A DNA stretch of 31,345 bases from Escherichia phage D8, in the sequence record OM475426, one strand, 5' to 3'. The stretch's first letter is position 1. Every line of letters starts with the position of its first letter. Positions 5,242 through 30,788 of the stretch are shown here, piece by piece. The notes below the pieces were generated by a model. It worked only from the letters and a program-made list of their open reading frames with translations, searched no databases and had not been told where the DNA came from. The translations under genes and the position numbers were made by a program.

Positions 5242-5985
5242 ATGACGAGTCCCGCACAGCGCCACATGATGCGGGTCTCGGCAGCGATGACCGCGCAGCG
5301 GGAAGCCGCCCCGCTGCGACATGCAACTGTCTATGAGCAGATGCTGGTTAAGCTCGCCGCAGACCAGCGCACACTGAAAGCGATTTATTCAAAAGAGCTG
5401 AAGGCCGCGAAAAAACGCGAACTGCTGCCGTTCTGGTTGCCGTGGGTGAACGGCGTGCTGGAGCAGGGCAAAGGTGCACAGGATGACATTCTGATGACGG
5501 TCATGCTGTGGCGTCTGGATACCGGCGATATTGCCGGTGCGCTGGAGATTGCCCGTTATGCCCTGAAGTACGGTCTGACCATGCCGGGTAAACACCGCCG
5601 TACCCCGCCGTACATGTTCACCGAGGAGGTAGCGCTTGCGGCCATGCGCGCTCACGCTGCCGGTGAGTCTGTGGATACCCGCCTGCTGACGGAGACCCTT
5701 GAACTGACCGCCACGGCTGACATGCCTGATGAAGTGCGCGCAAAGCTGCACAAAATCACCGGTCTGTTTCTGCGTGACGGTGGTGATGCCGCCGGTGCGC
5801 TGGCTCACCTGCAACGTGCGACACAGCTCGACTGTCAGGCAGGTGTCAAAAAAGAGATTGAACGACTGGAGCGGGAGCTGAAACCGAAGCCGGAGCCGCA
5901 GCCCAAAGCGGCCACCCGTACCCCGCGTAAGAGCCGGAGCGTGACACCGGCAAAACGTGGACGCCCGAAAAAGAAAGCCAGTTAA
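5242..5985 (+). CDS. M: Terminase small (endonuclease) subunit (P2 gpM-like), 247 aa
   Basis: 247 aa equals P2 gpM; basic Lys/Arg/Pro-rich C-terminal tail; gene order. Confidence 0.88.
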   Translation: MTSPAQRHMMRVSAAMTAQREAAPLRHATVYEQMLVKLAADQRTLKAIYSKELKAAKKRELLPFWLPWVNGVLEQGKGAQDDILMTVMLWRLDTGDIAGALEIARYALKYGLTMPGKHRRTPPYMFTEEVALAAMRAHAAGESVDTRLLTETLELTATADMPDEVRAKLHKITGLFLRDGGDAAGALAHLQRATQLDCQAGVKKEIERLERELKPKPEPQPKAATRTPRKSRSVTPAKRGRPKKKAS

Positions 5986-6594: not shown

Positions 6595-6797
6595 TGAAGA
6601 CCTTTGCGCTACAGGGCGACACGCTCGACGCCATTTGTGTCCGGTATTACGGGCGCACTGAGGGCGTGGTTGAGACCGTGCTCGCCGCAAATTCGGGACT
6701 GGCTGAACTGGGGGCGGTGCTGCCACATGGCACCGCCGTCGAACTGCCCGACGTTCAGACCGCGCCCGTGGCTGAAACTGTCAATCTGTGGGAGTAA
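6594..6797 (+). CDS. X: Tail protein X (P2 gpX-like, LysM-type), 67 aa
   Basis: Start at MKTFALQGDTLDAICVRYYG gives 67 aa as in P2 gpX; ATG overlaps the L stop. Confidence 0.75.
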   Translation: MKTFALQGDTLDAICVRYYGRTEGVVETVLAANSGLAELGAVLPHGTAVELPDVQTAPVAETVNLWE

Positions 6798-11944: not shown

Positions 11945-14704
11945 ATGAGCACGAAATTTAAAACCGTTATCACTACTGCCGGAGCCGCAAAGCTGGCTGC
12001 CGCCACTGTCCCCGGCGGGAAAAAAGTAAACCTGTCTGCAATGGCCGTGGGTGACGGTAATGGCAAATTACCGGTGCCGGATGCCGGTCAGACGAAACTG
12101 GTGCATGAGGTCTGGCGTCACGCTCTGAATAAAGTCAGTGTGGATAATAAGAATAAAAACTATATTGTGGCTGAACTGGTTGTTCCGCCAGAAGTGGGCG
12201 GCTTCTGGATGCGTGAGCTTGGTCTGTATGACGATGCCGGAACACTGATTGCGGTATCCAACATGGCAGAAAGCTATAAGCCAGAACTGGCTGAAGGCTC
12301 CGGACGTGCGCAGACCTGCCGCATGGTTATTATTCTCAGCAACGTGGCGTCCGTTGAGCTGAGTATTGATGCCAGCACAGTGATGGCTACGCAGGATTAC
12401 GTCGATGACAAAATCGCAGAGCATGAGCAGTCCCGCCGCCATCCTGACGCCACGCTGACAGAAAAAGGTTTTACTCAGTTAAGCAGTGCAACAAACAGCA
12501 CCAGTGAAAAGCTGGCGGCAACGCCAAAAGCGGTCAAGGCTGCGAATGACAACGCAAATTCACGTCTGGCGAAAAATCAGAACGGTGCAGATATCCAGGA
12601 TAAATCAGCTTTTCTGGACAATGTTGGCGTTACCAGCCTGACGTTTATGAAAAACAATGGCGAAATGCCGCTTGATGCTGATCTGAATACGTTTGGTCCT
12701 GTTAAGGCTTATTCAGGTATCTGGTCTAAAGCAACATCCACCAACGCAACACTGGAGAAAAATTTCCCGGAAGATAATGCTGTCGGTGTGCTTGAGGTTT
12801 TTGCTGCCGGCAATTTTGCAGGTACGCAACGCTTTACCACGAGAGACGGCAATGTATACATGCGTAAACTCGCCAATAGGTGGAATGGCACTGATGGTCC
12901 GTGGGGCGTATGGCGTCACACTCAATCTGCTACCCGCCCTTTGAGTACGACTATAGACCTGAATACGCTTGGAGCCGCCGAGCATCTTGGTTTATGGCGT
13001 AACAGTAGCTCAGCTATAGCTTCATATGAACGCAATTATCCAGAGGAAGGCGGCTTTGCTCAGGGGATGCTTGAGATCCTCGAAGGCGGAAATTATGGAA
13101 GAACGCAACGTTATACCACTCGCCGTGGAAATATGTATGTCCGCTGTCTTGCGGCAAGCTGGGATGCATCAAATCCGCAGTGGGAACCGTGGTTAAGAGT
13201 CGGTCATCAGTCAGAGAGTCGTTATTACGAAGGTGATTTAAATGTTCTAACCGACCCCGGTATTTACAGTGTTACAGGAAAGGCAACAAACGGTCCGATG
13301 CTGGACACCGTTGGCGCGACACTACTTGGGATACTGGAAGTAATCAGACGTTTTGATGGTGTGTCTGTCTGGCAGCGTTACACAACCACAGGGAAATCAG
13401 AAACCACACAGGGACGCACTTTTGAGCGCGTCTACGCCGGGAGCAAATGGACCGAATGGCGAGAAGTATATAACTCCTTTTCGTTGCCTCTGAATCTGGG
13501 CATCGGTGGCGCAGTGGCAAAACTATCCAGTCTGGACTGGCAGACCTACGATTTTGTGCCGGGCAGTCTGATAACCGTGCGGCTTGATAACATGACCAAC
13601 ATTCCCGACGGTATGGACTGGGGCGTCATTGATGGCAACCTGATAAACATCGCAGTTGGTCCGAGTGATGATTCCGGTACGGGGCGCTCAATGCATGTAT
13701 GGCGCAGCACTGTAAGTAAAGCGAACTACCGCTTTTTTATGGTGCGTATTTCAGGAAATCCGGGAAGCCGCACGATCACGACAAGACGTGTGCCAATTAT
13801 CGACGAAGCTCAGACATGGGGCGCGAAACAGACATTCAGTGCTGGCCTTTCTGGTGAACTGTCCGGCAATGCGGCGACAGCAACAAAGCTGAAAACAGCC
13901 CGTAAAATTAATAACGTTTCGTTTGATGGAACATCAGATATTAACTTGACGCCGAAAAATATTGGTGCATTTGCTTCAGGAAAAACAGGAGACACCGTTG
14001 CGAATGATAAAGCCGTTGGGTGGAACTGGAGTAGCGGAGCCTATAACGCAACTACTGGTGGGGCATCAACGTTAATTCTTCATTTTAATATCGGTGAAGG
14101 AAGTTGTCCCGCCGCCCAGTTCCGCGTTAATTATAAGAACGGCGGTATTTTTTATCGTTCTGCTCGTGACGGTTACGGATTCGAGGCTGACTGGTCTGAG
14201 TTTTATACCACAACGCGAAAACCTACAGCGGGAGATGTCGGTGCACTGCCGTTATCTGGTGGTCAATTGAATGGTGCTCTGGGTATAGGAACATCCAGTG
14301 CTCTTGGCGGTAATTCGATTGTTTTGGGTGATAATGACACGGGCTTTAAACAAAATGGTGATGGTAATCTGGATGTTTATGCTAATAGCGTCCATATTAT
14401 GCGCTTTGTCTCGGGAAGTATTCAAAGTAATAAAACCATAAATATTACGGGGCGTGTTAATCCCTCGGATTACGGTAACTTTGATTCCCGCTATGTCCGG
14501 GATATCCGGCTTGGTGGTGCTGCCACATACAAACCTGCGAACAATGGCATGACATGGACACATCAGGCACCGTCCGGGTGTGTATATTCCGGCATTATTG
14601 TTCAGGATACCGGCTCAAACTCTGCCGATAACATTGGTGGTGTATATTACAGGCCGGTTCAGAAATACATTAACGGGACATGGTATAACGTGGCGCAGGT
14701 ATAA
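11945..14704 (+). CDS. H: Tail fibre protein (P2 gpH-like N-terminus with expanded mosaic C-terminal receptor-binding region), 919 aa
   Basis: N-terminal ~200 aa resemble P2 gpH as I recall it (MS.KF.TVITTAGAAKLAAA...); the ORF is 919 aa vs 669 in P2; the distal half has lower GC, three tandem ~70-aa modules and a C-terminal domain resembling those of P1/Mu S and lambda Stf. Confidence 0.85.
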   Translation: MSTKFKTVITTAGAAKLAAATVPGGKKVNLSAMAVGDGNGKLPVPDAGQTKLVHEVWRHALNKVSVDNKNKNYIVAELVVPPEVGGFWMRELGLYDDAGTLIAVSNMAESYKPELAEGSGRAQTCRMVIILSNVASVELSIDASTVMATQDYVDDKIAEHEQSRRHPDATLTEKGFTQLSSATNSTSEKLAATPKAVKAANDNANSRLAKNQNGADIQDKSAFLDNVGVTSLTFMKNNGEMPLDADLNTFGPVKAYSGIWSKATSTNATLEKNFPEDNAVGVLEVFAAGNFAGTQRFTTRDGNVYMRKLANRWNGTDGPWGVWRHTQSATRPLSTTIDLNTLGAAEHLGLWRNSSSAIASYERNYPEEGGFAQGMLEILEGGNYGRTQRYTTRRGNMYVRCLAASWDASNPQWEPWLRVGHQSESRYYEGDLNVLTDPGIYSVTGKATNGPMLDTVGATLLGILEVIRRFDGVSVWQRYTTTGKSETTQGRTFERVYAGSKWTEWREVYNSFSLPLNLGIGGAVAKLSSLDWQTYDFVPGSLITVRLDNMTNIPDGMDWGVIDGNLINIAVGPSDDSGTGRSMHVWRSTVSKANYRFFMVRISGNPGSRTITTRRVPIIDEAQTWGAKQTFSAGLSGELSGNAATATKLKTARKINNVSFDGTSDINLTPKNIGAFASGKTGDTVANDKAVGWNWSSGAYNATTGGASTLILHFNIGEGSCPAAQFRVNYKNGGIFYRSARDGYGFEADWSEFYTTTRKPTAGDVGALPLSGGQLNGALGIGTSSALGGNSIVLGDNDTGFKQNGDGNLDVYANSVHIMRFVSGSIQSNKTINITGRVNPSDYGNFDSRYVRDIRLGGAATYKPANNGMTWTHQAPSGCVYSGIIVQDTGSNSADNIGGVYYRPVQKYINGTWYNVAQV

Positions 14705-14707
14705 TTT

Positions 14708-15235
14708 ATGCAGCATTTAAAAAATATTACGGCGGGTAATCCAAAAACGGTTGAACAATATCAATTGACAAAGGGTTTTGATGTTGTCTGGTTTTTTTCA
14801 GAAGATGGTAAGAACTGGTACGAAGAACAAAAGTATTTTGCTGATGACACGATAAAAATAGCGTACGACAAAGATAATATTATCCGCTATGTGGAAAAGG
14901 ATGTGACAGCTATCAGACCGGATGGATTAAGTGTTGTTGAAGTGGCGGATATTACTGCTAACCGACGGGCGGACATTTCAGGGGGCTGGATGTTTAAGGA
15001 CGGCAAAGTGATTAAACGCATTTATACGGCAGAGGAATTGCTGCAGCAGGCAGAAAACCGGAAAGCCAGACTTCTTGCAGATGCTGAATCCGTGATTTTG
15101 CCGCTGGAGCGCGCGGTCAGACTGAACATGGCAACAGATGAGGAGCGTAGCCGACTGGATGCATGGGAGCGTTACAGCGTTCTGGTCAGTCGTGTGGATC
15201 CTGCAAATCCTGAATGGCCGGAAATGCCGCAATAA
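14708..15235 (+). CDS. G: Tail fibre assembly chaperone (P2 gpG-like), 175 aa
   Basis: 175 aa as P2 gpG; immediately downstream of H. Confidence 0.8.
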
Positions 15236-15456
15236 GTTGTATGATCTCTGGAGTGAGCAAACATATCTATGGCACAGAGTAAAGCCTAATCTGACAGGCC
15301 GCTCTGTGTCTGGAGTAGATTTTAGTAAAGCATTATTTTATTAGTGCAAATTCTAATCAATACATTTTATGTATATGATATCCTGCAGACTTTAATGACT
15401 TGGTTTAGGCTAACCAGATAACACTGAAGGAATATTTTTGATAATTAAGGTGCGGT

Positions 15457-16050
15457 ATGTTTACTAAGCGACGATTAAAAAATATTAACTGGGAGGCAAG
15501 TTCAGTGATTCTTGCCATGGTTCTCTTTGTTGGAAATATATTTTATACAAATCATCGTGATGATATAAGCATGGAGGCTGAGAGGGACAGTATCAGAACA
15601 ATGTTTGCATATGAAATCGCTAATAACCATCGCGCTCTCACTTTTCTTGATAAAACGAGATATATTGGCTTTGACGAAAATTCGGAGCATTTTGTTGGCG
15701 AGCCTTTTGCCATTAATGTCAAATCATTAGGGGGGCCTCGCTTACAGATTGCATTAAACCAGACTGATAAAGTGTTTAAATCCTACTTCAGCGAATTAAG
15801 TAAGCTTGATAAAGAGGATGTTACTCTTCTTATGGACTATTACCATGAGCAAAGCATCCTGCTGGAGCGTGTAAAATCTACGTTACAGAAGATGAAAAGT
15901 GGTAATGATATTAAAGTTGATATTGATGGTTACTTATTAGAAGAACACTTCATGAATGAGCTTAATCTTTCTAATATTTTGCTTAAACGCTATAGCCATT
16001 TGTTGTCACAACACGCCAAAGAACATAAAACAAAAGATTTACATAATTGA
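15457..16050 (+). CDS. Cargo (moron) ORF of unknown function, 197 aa, N-terminal transmembrane anchor; at the P2 Z/fun hotspot position
   Basis: AT-rich ORF in a low-GC island between G and FI; RBS aaggtg about 8 nt before ATG; N-terminal hydrophobic helix (SSVILAMVLFVGNIFY) followed by a charged soluble region; no family recognised. Confidence 0.6.
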   Translation: MFTKRRLKNINWEASSVILAMVLFVGNIFYTNHRDDISMEAERDSIRTMFAYEIANNHRALTFLDKTRYIGFDENSEHFVGEPFAINVKSLGGPRLQIALNQTDKVFKSYFSELSKLDKEDVTLLMDYYHEQSILLERVKSTLQKMKSGNDIKVDIDGYLLEEHFMNELNLSNILLKRYSHLLSQHAKEHKTKDLHN

Positions 16051-16256
16051 TAATCTGCTAATGGTTATTCATGGGGTAACTATGTTTTATATGTAATCCA
16101 ACTCAGATGAATTATTGATTCTGGATAATAACCGCAGAGCGGCATATACCCTGACAGGCAAATGTCCGCTTCTTGTTCAAAGCAGACCGTCAGATTTGAT
16201 AACTTTTGGGCTATGTAAATTGTCAGTCGGAAAATGAGTGAGTTCAAATCAGGACA

Positions 16257-16280
16257 GGCGGGCGAATTGCCCGCCTTTTC
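16257..16280 (+). terminator. Rho-independent terminator at the end of the G-FI cargo island
   Basis: Perfect hairpin ggcgggc/gaatt/gcccgcc followed by ttttcttt. Confidence 0.65.
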
Positions 16281-16379
16281 TTTATCTGTTGTTTCATCCA
16301 CTGACCAGCCAGGTCAAATAGCGTCTCATGCTCTGCACAACAGAAAATAGTTGCACCCATTAACCACGGAGTTAAACGG

Positions 16380-17570
16380 ATGAGTGACTATCATCACGGC
16401 GTGCAGGTGCTGGAGATTAACGACGGCACCCGCGTCATTTCCACCGTATCCACTGCCATTGTCGGCATGATCTGCACGGCCAGCGATGCGGATGCGGAAA
16501 CCTTCCCCCTCAATAAACCTGTGCTGATTACCAATGTGCAGAGCGCAATTGCAAAGGCCGGTAAAAAAGGCACGCTGGCGGCATCGTTGCAGGCCATCGC
16601 AGACCAGTCAAAACCGGTCACCGTTGTCGTGCGCGTGGAAGACGGCACCGGTGATGACGAGGAAACGAAACTCGCGCAGACCGTTTCCAATATCATCGGC
16701 ACCACCGACGAAAACGGTCAGTATACCGGACTGAAAGCCCTGCTGGCGGCAGAGTCGGTAACCGGTGTTAAACCGCGTATTCTCGGCGTGCCGGGACTGG
16801 ATACCAAAGAGGTGGCTGTTGCACTGGCATCAGTCTGTCAGAAGCTGCGCGCTTTCGGGTATATCAGCGCATGGGGCTGTAAAACCATTTCCGAGGTGAA
16901 AGCTTACCGCCAGAATTTCAGCCAGCGTGAGCTGATGGTCATCTGGCCGGATTTCCTCGCATGGGATACTGTCACCAGTACCACCGCCACCGCGTATGCC
17001 ACCGCCCGTGCGCTGGGGCTGCGCGCTAAAATCGACCAGGAGCAGGGCTGGCATAAAACGCTGTCCAATGTCGGGGTGAACGGTGTTACCGGCATCAGCG
17101 CATCTGTATTCTGGGATTTGCAGGAGTCCGGCACCGATGCTGACCTGCTTAACGAGTCAGGCGTCACAACGCTGATTCGCCGTGACGGTTTCCGGTTCTG
17201 GGGTAACCGTACCTGCTCTGATGACCCGCTGTTCCTCTTTGAAAACTACACCCGCACCGCGCAGGTGCTGGCCGACACGATGGCTGAGGCGCACATGTGG
17301 GCGGTGGACAAGCCCATCACCGCAACGCTGATTCGCGACATCGTTGACGGCATCAATGCCAAATTCCGTGAGCTGAAAACAAACGGCTATATCGTGGATG
17401 CGACCTGCTGGTTCAGCGAAGAATCCAACGATGCGGAAACCCTCAAGGCCGGAAAACTGTATATCGACTACGACTATACCCCGGTGCCTCCTCTCGAAAA
17501 CCTGACCCTGCGCCAGCGTATTACCGATAAATACCTGGCAAATCTGGTCACCTCGGTTAACAGCAATTAA
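16380..17570 (+). CDS. FI: Tail sheath protein (P2 gpFI-like), 396 aa
   Basis: 396 aa as P2 FI; RBS ggag upstream; followed by tube gene. Confidence 0.9.
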   Translation: MSDYHHGVQVLEINDGTRVISTVSTAIVGMICTASDADAETFPLNKPVLITNVQSAIAKAGKKGTLAASLQAIADQSKPVTVVVRVEDGTGDDEETKLAQTVSNIIGTTDENGQYTGLKALLAAESVTGVKPRILGVPGLDTKEVAVALASVCQKLRAFGYISAWGCKTISEVKAYRQNFSQRELMVIWPDFLAWDTVTSTTATAYATARALGLRAKIDQEQGWHKTLSNVGVNGVTGISASVFWDLQESGTDADLLNESGVTTLIRRDGFRFWGNRTCSDDPLFLFENYTRTAQVLADTMAEAHMWAVDKPITATLIRDIVDGINAKFRELKTNGYIVDATCWFSEESNDAETLKAGKLYIDYDYTPVPPLENLTLRQRITDKYLANLVTSVNSN

Positions 17571-29084: not shown

Positions 29085-29199
29085 ATGGTGTCGGAACATA
29101 ATATTTTCAGGTGTTCAAAGAGTTTGTTCTGATGTTCTTGCTATTTTTGTTTCTTTTGATGAAAATGGCGTCTTTAAAATTGGTTAAAAGGTGTGTTGT

Positions 29200-29688
29200 A
29201 TGGATGGTTTATGGGAAAAAATATCGTCTTATAATATATTTAACAATCTCTTTCCCGGTGCTTTGTTTATTTATTTGTTTGAGCGGGCAACCAATGTGAT
29301 ATTATCCACAGATGATGTTGTTAAGAATGTGGTACTTTACTATTTTACGGGGATAATTATCGGAAGGATTGGGTCTATTGTTTTTGAGCCTGTGTTGAAA
29401 TTTTTGGGGCTGGTAAAATTTGTTCCATATGAGGAATATATCTCAGCATGTAGAAAGGATAATAAAATAGAGCTTCTTCAAGAAACTGCAAATATGTATA
29501 GGACGTTATTCTCTATGTCCTTGGTTTTTTTGTTTTCTTTGTTTTTTGTTTCGTTTGTAGTTGGTGGTGATTACATGGCGTCGAAATGGATTTCATTGTT
29601 TTTGATTTTTGTTTTTATTGTGTCGTACGTTAAGCAAATTAAGTTTATTACATTAAGAGTGAGTAAGGCTAATAATAAGCTGCCCTAA
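29200..29688 (+). CDS. Cargo ORF: small polytopic membrane protein (about 4 TM helices), about 162 aa, unknown function
   Basis: AT-rich; RBS aaggtg before ATG at 29200; hydrophobic segments FPGALFIYLF, VVLYYFTGIIIGRIGSIVF, LFSMSLVFLFSLFFVSFVVGG, WISLFLIFVFIVSYV. Confidence 0.55.
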   Translation: MDGLWEKISSYNIFNNLFPGALFIYLFERATNVILSTDDVVKNVVLYYFTGIIIGRIGSIVFEPVLKFLGLVKFVPYEEYISACRKDNKIELLQETANMYRTLFSMSLVFLFSLFFVSFVVGGDYMASKWISLFLIFVFIVSYVKQIKFITLRVSKANNKLP

Positions 29689-29702: not shown

Positions 29703-30788
29703 TTATTCTTCAGTCTTATAACTCCTTGCGTATGAGCGTGGGGTGACTGCAGTCCAGCCATCTCTGGCGGGGGCATTACTAGAATGGCGTTTATTGGTGC
29801 CTTCTGTGGCGACTACTTTGGCTCCACGCCTTGTAAAAGCATTAATGACCGCTTGATGAGGGTGTTTATCGGAATCCGGTGCGCATGATATAAATGCACA
29901 AACACCACTTCTTCCTCCTTCGCTTACAATATTTCCAACGAGCTTATTTAGCACCGCTGGACCGATGTTTCTCCTGCTTCCATGGTGGGGCACTTGAATA
30001 AATGATAATGAGTTATTATTTATATGATCAGCAGCCATATCTAATGCAGTTATTCCTGCATCACCTGTAAATACTAGTGTTTTATTGTCAATTTCAATTT
30101 TTAATATAACGCTTGAATTGTTTTGTGCAGTAGTTGTGTCCTTGTCATCAATTCCCTCATCAGAGAACCAATCAGCAATATACTCGACTTGTTCTTTGGC
30201 TTTCTCAAAAAAGTAGTTATATGCATCTGTACCACTGGTTGCAGTTGTTTCTGCTTTTTCAGGCATTCTTGCAAAATCGGGGATTAATGTTTCATAGTAT
30301 GCTTGTGTTGGTCCAATAACAACCAGTTTAGAATTGTCCCAAGTCCTGCCTTGAAAAGGCTCCTTAATTTCTATTCCTTTTTTTTTCGCTGATTTGACGG
30401 CATCATAGGCTTTTTGTAGATTATCTTGTATACGTCTGGCAATACTTGCATCTGTTATCCTTCCATCAGCAAATTCCTGCGCGAGATTTTCATTATGCTC
30501 CCAAGGCTGGTGAATCCAGAACTCTTTGACTTCCGCATTCTCAATCACATGCTCAAGGCCGCCAGCATGGTCGCTATCTGGATGCGTGGATATGAGTAAG
30601 TCAATAGTATTTGTATGATAGTATTTCTGTAAATGTTCAATTATTTGTGGACCAGTGCTTGCGTACCCCGCATCAATTACGACAACTTTTTGCTCTGCTC
30701 TTGTTCCGTGGAGGTTGCCCCATCTTATGCAGATAGCATCTCCACTTTTTTTTTCTCCAACTGCTAAGAAATCAACTTCGTAACCCAT
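29703..30788 (-). CDS. Cargo ORF: metallo-beta-lactamase-fold hydrolase (possible nuclease), 361 aa
   Basis: All five MBL-fold motifs in order: VVVIDAG (Asp), STHPDSDHAGG (HxDxDH variant of HxHxDH), FWIHQ (His), VFTGDAG (Asp), VPHHGS (His); AT-rich; RBS-like aaggg before ATG; located where P2 carries tin/old. Confidence 0.75.
   Translation of the reverse strand: MGYEVDFLAVGEKKSGDAICIRWGNLHGTRAEQKVVVIDAGYASTGPQIIEHLQKYYHTNTIDLLISTHPDSDHAGGLEHVIENAEVKEFWIHQPWEHNENLAQEFADGRITDASIARRIQDNLQKAYDAVKSAKKKGIEIKEPFQGRTWDNSKLVVIGPTQAYYETLIPDFARMPEKAETTATSGTDAYNYFFEKAKEQVEYIADWFSDEGIDDKDTTTAQNNSSVILKIEIDNKTLVFTGDAGITALDMAADHINNNSLSFIQVPHHGSRRNIGPAVLNKLVGNIVSEGGRSGVCAFISCAPDSDKHPHQAVINAFTRRGAKVVATEGTNKRHSSNAPARDGWTAVTPRSYARSYKTEE

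Follow-up and report, generated by a model that had tools for sequence, protein, structure and literature searches.

Proteins that exclude phages at the level of the cell envelope include Sp and Imm of T4, gp15 of HK97, the lactococcal Sie2009, Llp of T5, and Cor of phi80 and N15. The P22 prophage protein SieA is another, and its effect was invisible on a general phage panel (PMC10883804). In P2, the slot between the tail-fiber assembly gene G and the tail-sheath gene FI is filled by fun(Z), which is annotated in that phage as a lysogenic-conversion gene blocking T5. The fun locus has been described as a second defense-enriched locus of P2-like phages, with three experimentally validated systems (PMC9519451), and the tail-gene hotspot holds 16% of P2 defense systems (PMC13586616). 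Not all cargo of the P2 hotspots is defensive; cytolethal distending toxin and partition systems are also found there (PMC9122126). Here we describe the cargo of the G-FI slot in Escherichia phage D8 (sequence record OM475426). It lies in an AT-rich island at 15236-16379 of a 31.3-kb stretch of DNA that was analyzed as a whole (“the window”; all coordinates are positions in it) and encodes a 197-amino-acid (aa) protein of the family phrog_3829, for which we tentatively favor a role in superinfection exclusion.

A foreign single-gene cassette in the G-FI slot

The whole window derives from a P2-like phage of the genus Peduovirus. Its genes are ordered H (11945-14704), G (14708-15235), the island, FI (16380-17570) and FII, and the segment from 15236 to 16379 matches Escherichia phage 12W and Peduovirus P24E6b at 100% identity, and PhiR44_1, P24B2, SIDE7, and P22H1 at 99.6-99.9%. 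A blastn comparison with P2 matched 15008-15308 and 16165-16500 and nothing between them. Because homology to the P2 backbone stops at 15308 and resumes at 16165, we place the inserted DNA at only about 15309-16164 (856 bp). The G+C content (GC) of this cassette is 34.6%, compared to 45% in G, 56% in FI, and a genome baseline of 52.0% across the window; it stays at 33-39% across the island, and GC at third codon positions is 0.35 in the 197-aa open reading frame (ORF) as opposed to 0.68 in FI. The initial annotation had placed an AT-rich cargo gene in the G-FI (Z/fun) hotspot, and both the composition and the position, which is that of fun(Z) in P2, bear this out. The cassette is inserted between genes that are adjacent or otherwise filled in relatives and it deviates in composition, as is typical of a moron.

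To survey its distribution we used 5426 complete Escherichia coli genomes. The gene was present in 201 of these (3.7%) while fun(Z) was found in 13, making the latter about 15 times rarer. The segment 16165-16379, upstream of FI, is conserved backbone that occurs in approximately 1018 of the genomes, and the cassette occurs in 201 only; it therefore fills about 20% of P2-like G-FI junctions and ranks among the most frequent cargos that E. coli carries in the P2 Z/fun hotspot. In IMG/VR, 29 of 30 loci had the identical geometry, with the gene between G and FI. E. coli EECO1006 (NZ_CP090319.1, 1937241-1939161), in which an IS1 transposase interrupts the cassette region, has one of very few disrupted copies.

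The gene travels without a fixed neighbor across at least seven genomic contexts. Since no neighbor is common to them, the cassette is a single-gene mobile unit. The initial annotation had also taken the cargo for a single gene, possibly an exclusion or abortive-infection factor. A virion component would be kept in all members and confined to morphogenetic contexts; this gene is missing from about 80% of P2-like prophages and is found on a plasmid, in islands, and on a P4-like satellite, and it is therefore not a virion component. Flanking sequence of approximately 145 bp before the ORF, including an AT-rich box and a T-rich segment with the ribosome-binding site, and of approximately 140 bp after it is also conserved around the homologs in two other settings, a Pantoea island and an IncFII plasmid of Enterobacter cloacae.

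The tail-fiber alleles beside the cassette vary widely. The C-terminus of H is 46-100% identical and G is 70-100% identical among loci in which the cassette protein is at least 94% identical. The cassette is thus unlinked to any particular tail-fiber allele or receptor-binding module. When 11945-15235 of the window was compared to the IMG/VR loci L029-L057, the H C-terminus and G were seen to be extensively swapped beside a near-constant cassette and FI, a modular exchange of the receptor-binding module.

The 197-aa open reading frame is a conserved gene

The coding sequence runs from an ATG at 15457 to 16050 on the plus strand (stop codon included) and is preceded, 4 nt before the ATG, by the ribosome-binding site AAGGTG (15447-15452, plus strand). 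Both the start and its own ribosome-binding site had been recognized in the initial annotation. The position of the latter is conserved in homologs, with AAGGAG or GAGGA at the same place in the copies from Pantoea, the Enterobacter plasmid, Salmonella, and Kosakonia. For SIDE7 and AC1, the sequence records give a 181-aa product from a GTG start. Residues N11, W12, E13, A14, and S16 (NWEAxS, residues 11-16), which lie upstream of the transmembrane (TM) helix, are invariant in 20 homologs. Because they would be lost with the annotated GTG start, the ATG at 15457 is the true start.

Against copies that are 61-70% identical, the ratio of nonsynonymous to synonymous substitution rates (dN/dS) was 0.10-0.16, with synonymous sites saturated. 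Among homologs down to 53% identity, 62 positions are invariant, and in E. coli, 201 of the 203 complete genomes with the gene have an undisrupted ORF. On the strength of these three observations, the ORF is a real, conserved gene under purifying selection.

Upstream of the gene, a conserved AT-rich box (15349-15384, plus strand) is 83% identical over 36 nt with the Pantoea island copy and includes a candidate -10 element, TATGAT (15374-15379); it is possibly the gene's own promoter. No canonical intrinsic terminator was predicted between the stop codon of G and the ORF, the first strong one being at 16256-16285, and late read-through from G into the ORF is therefore possible. A stem-loop just after G, described below, might stop or process the late transcript.

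The product is a predicted membrane-anchored helical bundle

The protein matched the phrog_3829 hidden Markov model over its full length (E = 2e-137, residues 1-197 on profile positions 1-197), as did all 17 diverse members of our alignment (A3). PHROGs assigns no function to this family. Other searches were empty or at noise level: Pfam gave no match for the protein and no family common to more than one of the 17 members, PADLOC-DB v2.0.0 gave no family at E ≤ 10, the best NCBIfam match had E = 0.03 and scored 13.8 bits where the cutoff is 300, and the best match in a profile search of the PDB had E = 0.23. For six distant members, PADLOC at E ≤ 1 returned no meaningful match, only a chance-level Cas8b for one of them (P0082; E = 0.006, 14 bits). 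A profile search of 1.84 billion representatives recovered just 27 relatives. The initial annotation had recognized no family, and that assessment stands. A literature search found no paper naming WP_000494502 or WP_032142943, and neither is present in the DefensePredictor supplements. Some NCBI records name the protein “lysogenic conversion protein” and RefSeq now uses “hypothetical protein”. The former name was considered as evidence of function, but there is no NCBIfam model behind it and we treated it as a positional label only.

Diverse full-length relatives (18-38% identity) share one layout, in which a basic N-terminus and a single TM helix are followed by a helical domain of approximately 165 aa. 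In the 17-sequence alignment R47, N57, and L117 are invariant and A51, E53, I54, and Y129 are nearly so. The single TM helix had been noticed earlier and is evident in the hydropathy profile, where residues ~13-32 (15493-15552, plus strand; Kyte-Doolittle value 1.54) follow a K/R-rich N-terminus of 12 residues and no second hydrophobic segment is present in the protein. The remainder (15553-16047, plus strand) is predicted to form the soluble domain. Structure prediction had been suggested as a check, and an AlphaFold2 model built from a 33-sequence alignment predicted with confidence (pLDDT 83.2, pTM 0.72, five models in agreement) a helical bundle into which the TM helix runs without a break. 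In this model a continuous helix of residues 12-66 would pass through the membrane and lead into a conserved loop, GEPFA...LG..RL (residues ~67-91), and further helices would complete an up-down four-helix bundle. The nearest structural neighbors, all non-significant, are extracytoplasmic bundles (the ligand-binding domains of Tsr and Tar, and OspC). No catalytic domain was detectable in the protein.

The orientation in the membrane was predicted from flanking charge. K+R exceeds D+E in the N-terminal flank of 16 of the 16 members that have a TM helix, and the C-terminal flank is neutral or acidic. This points to an N-in/C-out topology with the bundle in the periplasm. In four distant members, the domain predicted to be external contains a C-x4-C pair. 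The D8 protein has no cysteine and hence no lipobox, so it is not a lipoprotein.

A possible role in envelope-level exclusion

The reading that we favor, although we hold it tentatively, is that the protein mediates superinfection exclusion at the envelope against a narrow range of phages. The protein would be made in the lysogen from the prophage, and it would be a bitopic inner-membrane protein with about 12 basic residues in the cytoplasm, one TM helix, and the ~165-aa four-helix bundle in the periplasm. The bundle could bind either the DNA-delivery part of an incoming phage or an inner-membrane or periplasmic host factor that the phage needs. DNA from what is probably a narrow group of phages would then be kept out, and the cell would survive. 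Some 12 cytoplasmic residues are too few to form an intracellular sensor, and together with a non-enzymatic periplasmic bundle this makes exclusion at the envelope the most economical mechanism. The defense-enriched slot, the movement of the gene by itself between accessory sites of many mobile elements, purifying selection, and the prevalence of the gene also speak for an anti-phage role. In the sampled genomes, a second P2-like G-FI junction was found in 8 of 60 carriers compared to 9 of 24 non-carrier P2 lysogens (Fisher p = 0.018, heavily confounded by clonality), a weak trend toward exclusion.

Existing lysogen data bear on this proposal. Rousset et al. lysogenized E. coli C with four P2-like isolates (PMC9122126), two of which carry the gene: AC1 (95.4% identical protein) and SIDE7 (99.5%). 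The lysogens were challenged with lambda, T4, P1, 186cIts, CLB_P2, LF82_P8, AL505_P2, and T7, and the only protection reported, that of AC1 against lambda and LF82_P8, was reproduced by the cloned TIR system of AC1 (PMC9122126). Given the precedent of SieA, narrow-range exclusion would be expected to go unseen on a general phage panel.

Several observations weigh against exclusion. No protection attributable to the gene was seen in the AC1 and SIDE7 lysogens on that eight-phage panel (T5 was not part of it, and heteroimmune P2-like phages were not set against this gene), and the SIDE7 negative is our reading of the wording that AC1 protected rather than a stated result (PMC9122126). Six genomes hold two copies of the gene, so there is no absolute exclusion of phages that carry it. 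The N-in/C-out topology is derived solely from the positive-inside rule. No homology to a characterized exclusion or defense protein was found in PADLOC (no match) or PHROGs (phrog_3829 only), and tblastn against 50,697 phage records returned Peduovirus copies only. No convincing sigma-70 promoter was predicted, so expression in the lysogen is only putative; a consensus scan gave weak sigma-70-like sites only, one of which (15418-15445) would leave the ribosome-binding site off the transcript. Finally, the idea of a receptor mask fitted to the phage's own fiber is not supported, as the H and G alleles beside the cassette differ greatly.

We consider it rather unlikely, but worth stating, that phrog_3829 as a whole is an unrecognized family of stand-alone entry-exclusion proteins common to Enterobacterales phages, satellites, islands, and plasmids, whose bundle intercepts DNA delivery by contractile-tailed phages, including P2-like ones. 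If so, phrog_3829 would be the principal means, apart from repressor immunity, by which P2-like prophages keep out phages of their own type, and it would account for the seeming scarcity of second P2-like prophages among carriers.

Alternative explanations

The protein could instead serve in lysogenic conversion or fitness and have no part in defense. A periplasm-facing membrane protein might alter the host envelope (stress tolerance, colonization, surface) or limit the entry of conjugative DNA, and be carried for the benefit of the host or of the element. The lack of attributable phage resistance in the AC1 and SIDE7 lysogens fits this explanation, as do the “lysogenic conversion protein” label and the occurrence of relatives on a plasmid, within a conjugative tra region, and in integrase-shufflon-PilS-TraD islands. 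Elements of this sort typically encode inner-membrane entry-exclusion proteins. P2 hotspots also hold non-defense cargo (PMC9122126). On the other hand, the label has neither a model nor an experiment behind it, there is no NCBIfam match, and the RefSeq name is now “hypothetical protein”; no similarity to a virulence, transport, or envelope family was detected, and the slot and the neighbors of the homologs are enriched in defense genes. This role is somewhat unlikely. A single-gene abortive-infection effector, the TM helix of which would oligomerize on sensing infection and permeabilize the inner membrane to kill the cell before phage release, is less probable still. Membrane proteins are often the suicide effectors of known systems (PMC9122126), the location is a defense hotspot, and in one branch the gene is directly downstream of a ThsB-like TIR gene. 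However, one TM helix and about 12 cytoplasmic residues leave no cytoplasmic sensor, the TIR adjacency is not kept (a 73% identical relative in the same island slot has no TIR), the protein is unrelated to the 2TM, 1TM, and TIR proteins of the validated AC1 system, and the gene is stable and intact in about 200 genomes without a partner gene.

The position of the gene downstream of G and on the same strand as the late genes raises the possibility of a lytic-cycle accessory. By read-through from the late V-W-J-I-H-G operon, the gene would be co-transcribed and its product would act during virion production, for example by stopping injection into infected cells by progeny or competitors. No canonical intrinsic terminator was predicted between the G stop codon and the ORF, as noted above; in P2, an annotated V-operon terminator lies between G and fun(Z), and the transcript normally ends within the slot. 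A role of this kind is improbable given that about 80% of P2-like prophages lack the gene, that the gene occurs with its own upstream region in non-phage elements, that its composition is AT-rich and foreign, and that a strong stem-loop (15266-15314) could already stop or process the late transcript. It could also be argued that a gene with no phenotype, no recognizable domain, and no proven promoter is a hitch-hiking ORF without current function. We regard this as very improbable, since dN/dS is 0.10-0.16 over saturated synonymous divergence, 62 residues are invariant among homologs down to 53% identity, and the ORF is intact across genera and element types.

Backbone elements flanking the cassette

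Directly 3' of the G stop codon is a stem-loop (15266-15314, plus strand; dG -24.2 kcal/mol, z -4.6) that is kept in P2 and in all sampled P2-like prophages, including those with other cargos. Homology to P2 ends at 15308, and the cargo starts at or just past the 3' arm. The stem-loop is a candidate for the 3' end of the late transcript, a processing site, or a recombination anchor.

On the other side, an intrinsic terminator (16256-16285, plus strand) consists of a 9-bp G+C-rich stem with a 3-nt loop (16256-16276) followed by a T-run (dG -20.1 kcal/mol, z -4.4; 0 of 200 shuffles folded as well). Its hairpin is intact beside HNH-endonuclease (plus strand), SMEK-domain (minus strand), and hypothetical (plus strand) cargos. 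As it lies inside the 16165-16379 backbone and is kept beside other cargos of either orientation, we assign it to the backbone, where it would act as a general element that ends V-operon and cargo transcripts and insulates the late promoter P_F. The initial annotation had counted a strong terminator before FI as a part of the moron; the terminator is real, but it is not the moron's own. We considered whether terminator integrity follows cargo orientation, as it is strong here and degenerate in P2, yet rejected this because the hairpin is intact beside the minus-strand SMEK cargo. The reference P2 is an outlier among the sampled Peduoviruses in having a degenerate backbone hairpin (dG -11.3, z -0.1; L003 3515-3584 as compared to 16246-16312 of the window). 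The region of the P_F activator site in P2 also differs from the sequence common to six other sampled Peduoviruses.

The P_F region of the F operon (16287-16356, plus strand) was located by transferring positions from the annotated P2 record through a pairwise alignment, which maps the activator-binding site to ~16287-16312 and the transcription start of the F operon to ~16354-16356. A 38-aa minus-strand coding sequence (16244-16360), which the records of 12W and PhiR44_1 name “FIG00643520”, runs across both the terminator and the P_F activator site. It is not called by RefSeq/PGAP and is probably spurious.

Between the ORF and these backbone elements, a non-coding 3' tail (16051-16193, plus strand) travels with the gene, its last ~29 nt (16165-16193) overlapping the P2 backbone. 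Homology of the tail reaches 16193 in the Pantoea island and ~16187 in the Enterobacter plasmid. Compared to these copies, its substitutions show no codon periodicity (18/21/18, versus 47/21/84 in the ORF) and its indels are not multiples of 3; no Rfam family was found (best E = 0.44). A hidden small ORF or a known RNA in the tail was rejected on the basis of the absent periodicity and the Rfam result. Of the long 3' untranslated stretch described in the initial annotation, ~114-143 nt is therefore a non-coding cassette tail and the remainder is the backbone terminator and the P_F region.

Genomic contexts of the family and of the slot

The neighbors of the homologs are typical of defense and accessory hotspots. 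In a Kosakonia P4-like satellite (L011 2158-8591, and L058) a 62% identical copy lies just downstream of the gene for a P4-type alpha primase-helicase of 777 aa; Ash, DUF5375, and Ogr/Delta-like genes are found upstream. In P4, the interval from the primase to the att site is listed as a minor defense hotspot, and recent exchange of defense genes between P2 and P4 is reported to be rare (PMC13586616). The family is used by P2-like phages and by this P4-like satellite alike. The Pantoea homolog is in an AlpA island, the Salmonella homolog is at the end of a lambdoid prophage adjoining a DNA methylase and DUF4928, and the copy on the Enterobacter cloacae IncFII plasmid adjoins IS91 and VapC. Distant members were also found beside a Cap4-nuclease protein on a plasmid-like contig, among tra genes, on a small resolvase/ParB contig, and downstream of an island integrase, in some cases with a ThsB-like TIR gene (PADLOC PDC-S66) in between.

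In the E. coli integrase-shufflon-PilS-TraD islands, the ThsB-like TIR gene (PDC-S66, E = 2e-112) lies between the integrase and the family member in one variant and is missing in the other (L014 6090-7657 and L059 4609-6678, respectively), and the integrase-adjacent site looks like a small cargo hotspot. We considered whether the family supplies the TM partner of a TIR system. This was rejected, as the TIR gene is beside P0073 but absent at the 73% identical P0093 in the same slot, and absent from the window. The family profile did not match the four hotspot proteins of AC1 (2TM-1TM-TIR; best E = 0.27, negative scores).

The Enterobacter cloacae plasmid CP033467 (L008, ~5770-5830 and ~6598-6629) keeps approximately 25-30 nt of P2-type backbone on both sides (15300-15320 and 16156-16193 of the window), which suggests that the plasmid copy was captured from a P2-like G-FI slot or that the short conserved ends are recombination anchors; such sequence is also retained, over ~29 nt, on the right side of the copy in the Pantoea island. 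In E. coli 20-16 (L028), a decayed P2-like remnant (partial V, G, the cargo, partial FI, ogrK) lies beside fieF-pfkA-sbp, and the Salmonella homolog (L005), with its methylase/DUF4928 pair, adjoins the same three genes. The Salmonella copy may therefore sit in a P2-like remnant rather than in the adjacent lambdoid prophage.

Comparison of the G-FI slot across P2-like prophages had been proposed in the initial annotation. The other sampled cargos were an HNH endonuclease, a SMEK-domain protein, and the P-loop ATPase Fun(Z) of P2, and they look like conflict genes. The second hotspot of the D8 phage, the old/tin slot between the replication gene A and the portal gene Q, has a two-gene candidate defense system (29191-29688, plus strand, and 29703-30788, minus strand). 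The pair matches PADLOC PDC-M48A (E = 7e-49) and PDC-M48B (E = 9e-99), and the second protein is also LmuA-like.

A single-gene AT-rich moron in a P2 cargo and defense hotspot is a well-known kind of element; the phrog_3829 family itself is uncharacterized and is missed by current defense-annotation tools. The cassette is far commoner in E. coli than the textbook fun(Z), yet its protein is uncharacterized. Should it prove to be an exclusion factor, the few known Gram-negative entry blockers would gain a new family that is non-enzymatic and faces the periplasm, and the gene would bear on host-range prediction for phage therapy in clinical E. coli, as many carriers are urinary, blood, or extended-spectrum beta-lactamase (ESBL) isolates. 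If it is not anti-phage, it would be a counter-example to “guilt by location” at defense hotspots. The unit is small (0.9 kb) and isolated carrier phages exist (12W, SIDE7, AC1, and PhiR44_1).

Comparison with known systems

Fun(Z) of P2 (P2p22) shares with the D8 protein the G-FI slot and the character of non-essential, foreign, single-gene cargo. However, Fun(Z) is a 528-aa cytoplasmic protein, named in RefSeq as a Sll1717-type P-loop ATPase, and its gene lies on the other strand, beyond its own V-operon terminator. Homology between the two was considered and rejected (BLASTP E = 3.3), in line with their differences in size, strand, and predicted location. The analogy to T5 exclusion that the initial annotation had drawn through Fun(Z) is thus one of position only.

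A likeness in predicted architecture was noted to the ligand-binding domains of the chemoreceptors Tsr, Tar, PilJ, and PcaY, in which, as in our model, a TM helix continues into an extracytoplasmic up-down four-helix bundle. From general knowledge rather than individual comparison, T4 Sp and Imm, HK97 gp15, Sie2009, Llp, and Cor resemble the D8 protein in being small, non-enzymatic, located in the membrane or periplasm, and often encoded by morons. Llp and Cor, again from general knowledge, adjoin tail or receptor-binding genes, as does the 197-aa gene; the D8 protein, with no cysteine or lipobox, is not a lipoprotein like these two. It has no detectable homology to an annotated PHROG, and its cassette is unlinked to the fiber allele, which sets it apart from receptor masks that fit the receptor of the phage itself.

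SieA of P22 has no sequence relation to the D8 protein (PHROG, tblastn) and belongs to another phage family and another genomic position, and the likeness to it on our side is by prediction only. In its mode of action SieA nevertheless resembles what we propose: it is the product of a single prophage gene, it resides in the inner membrane, it acts alone, and it stops DNA injection by a narrow group of phages (PMC10883804).

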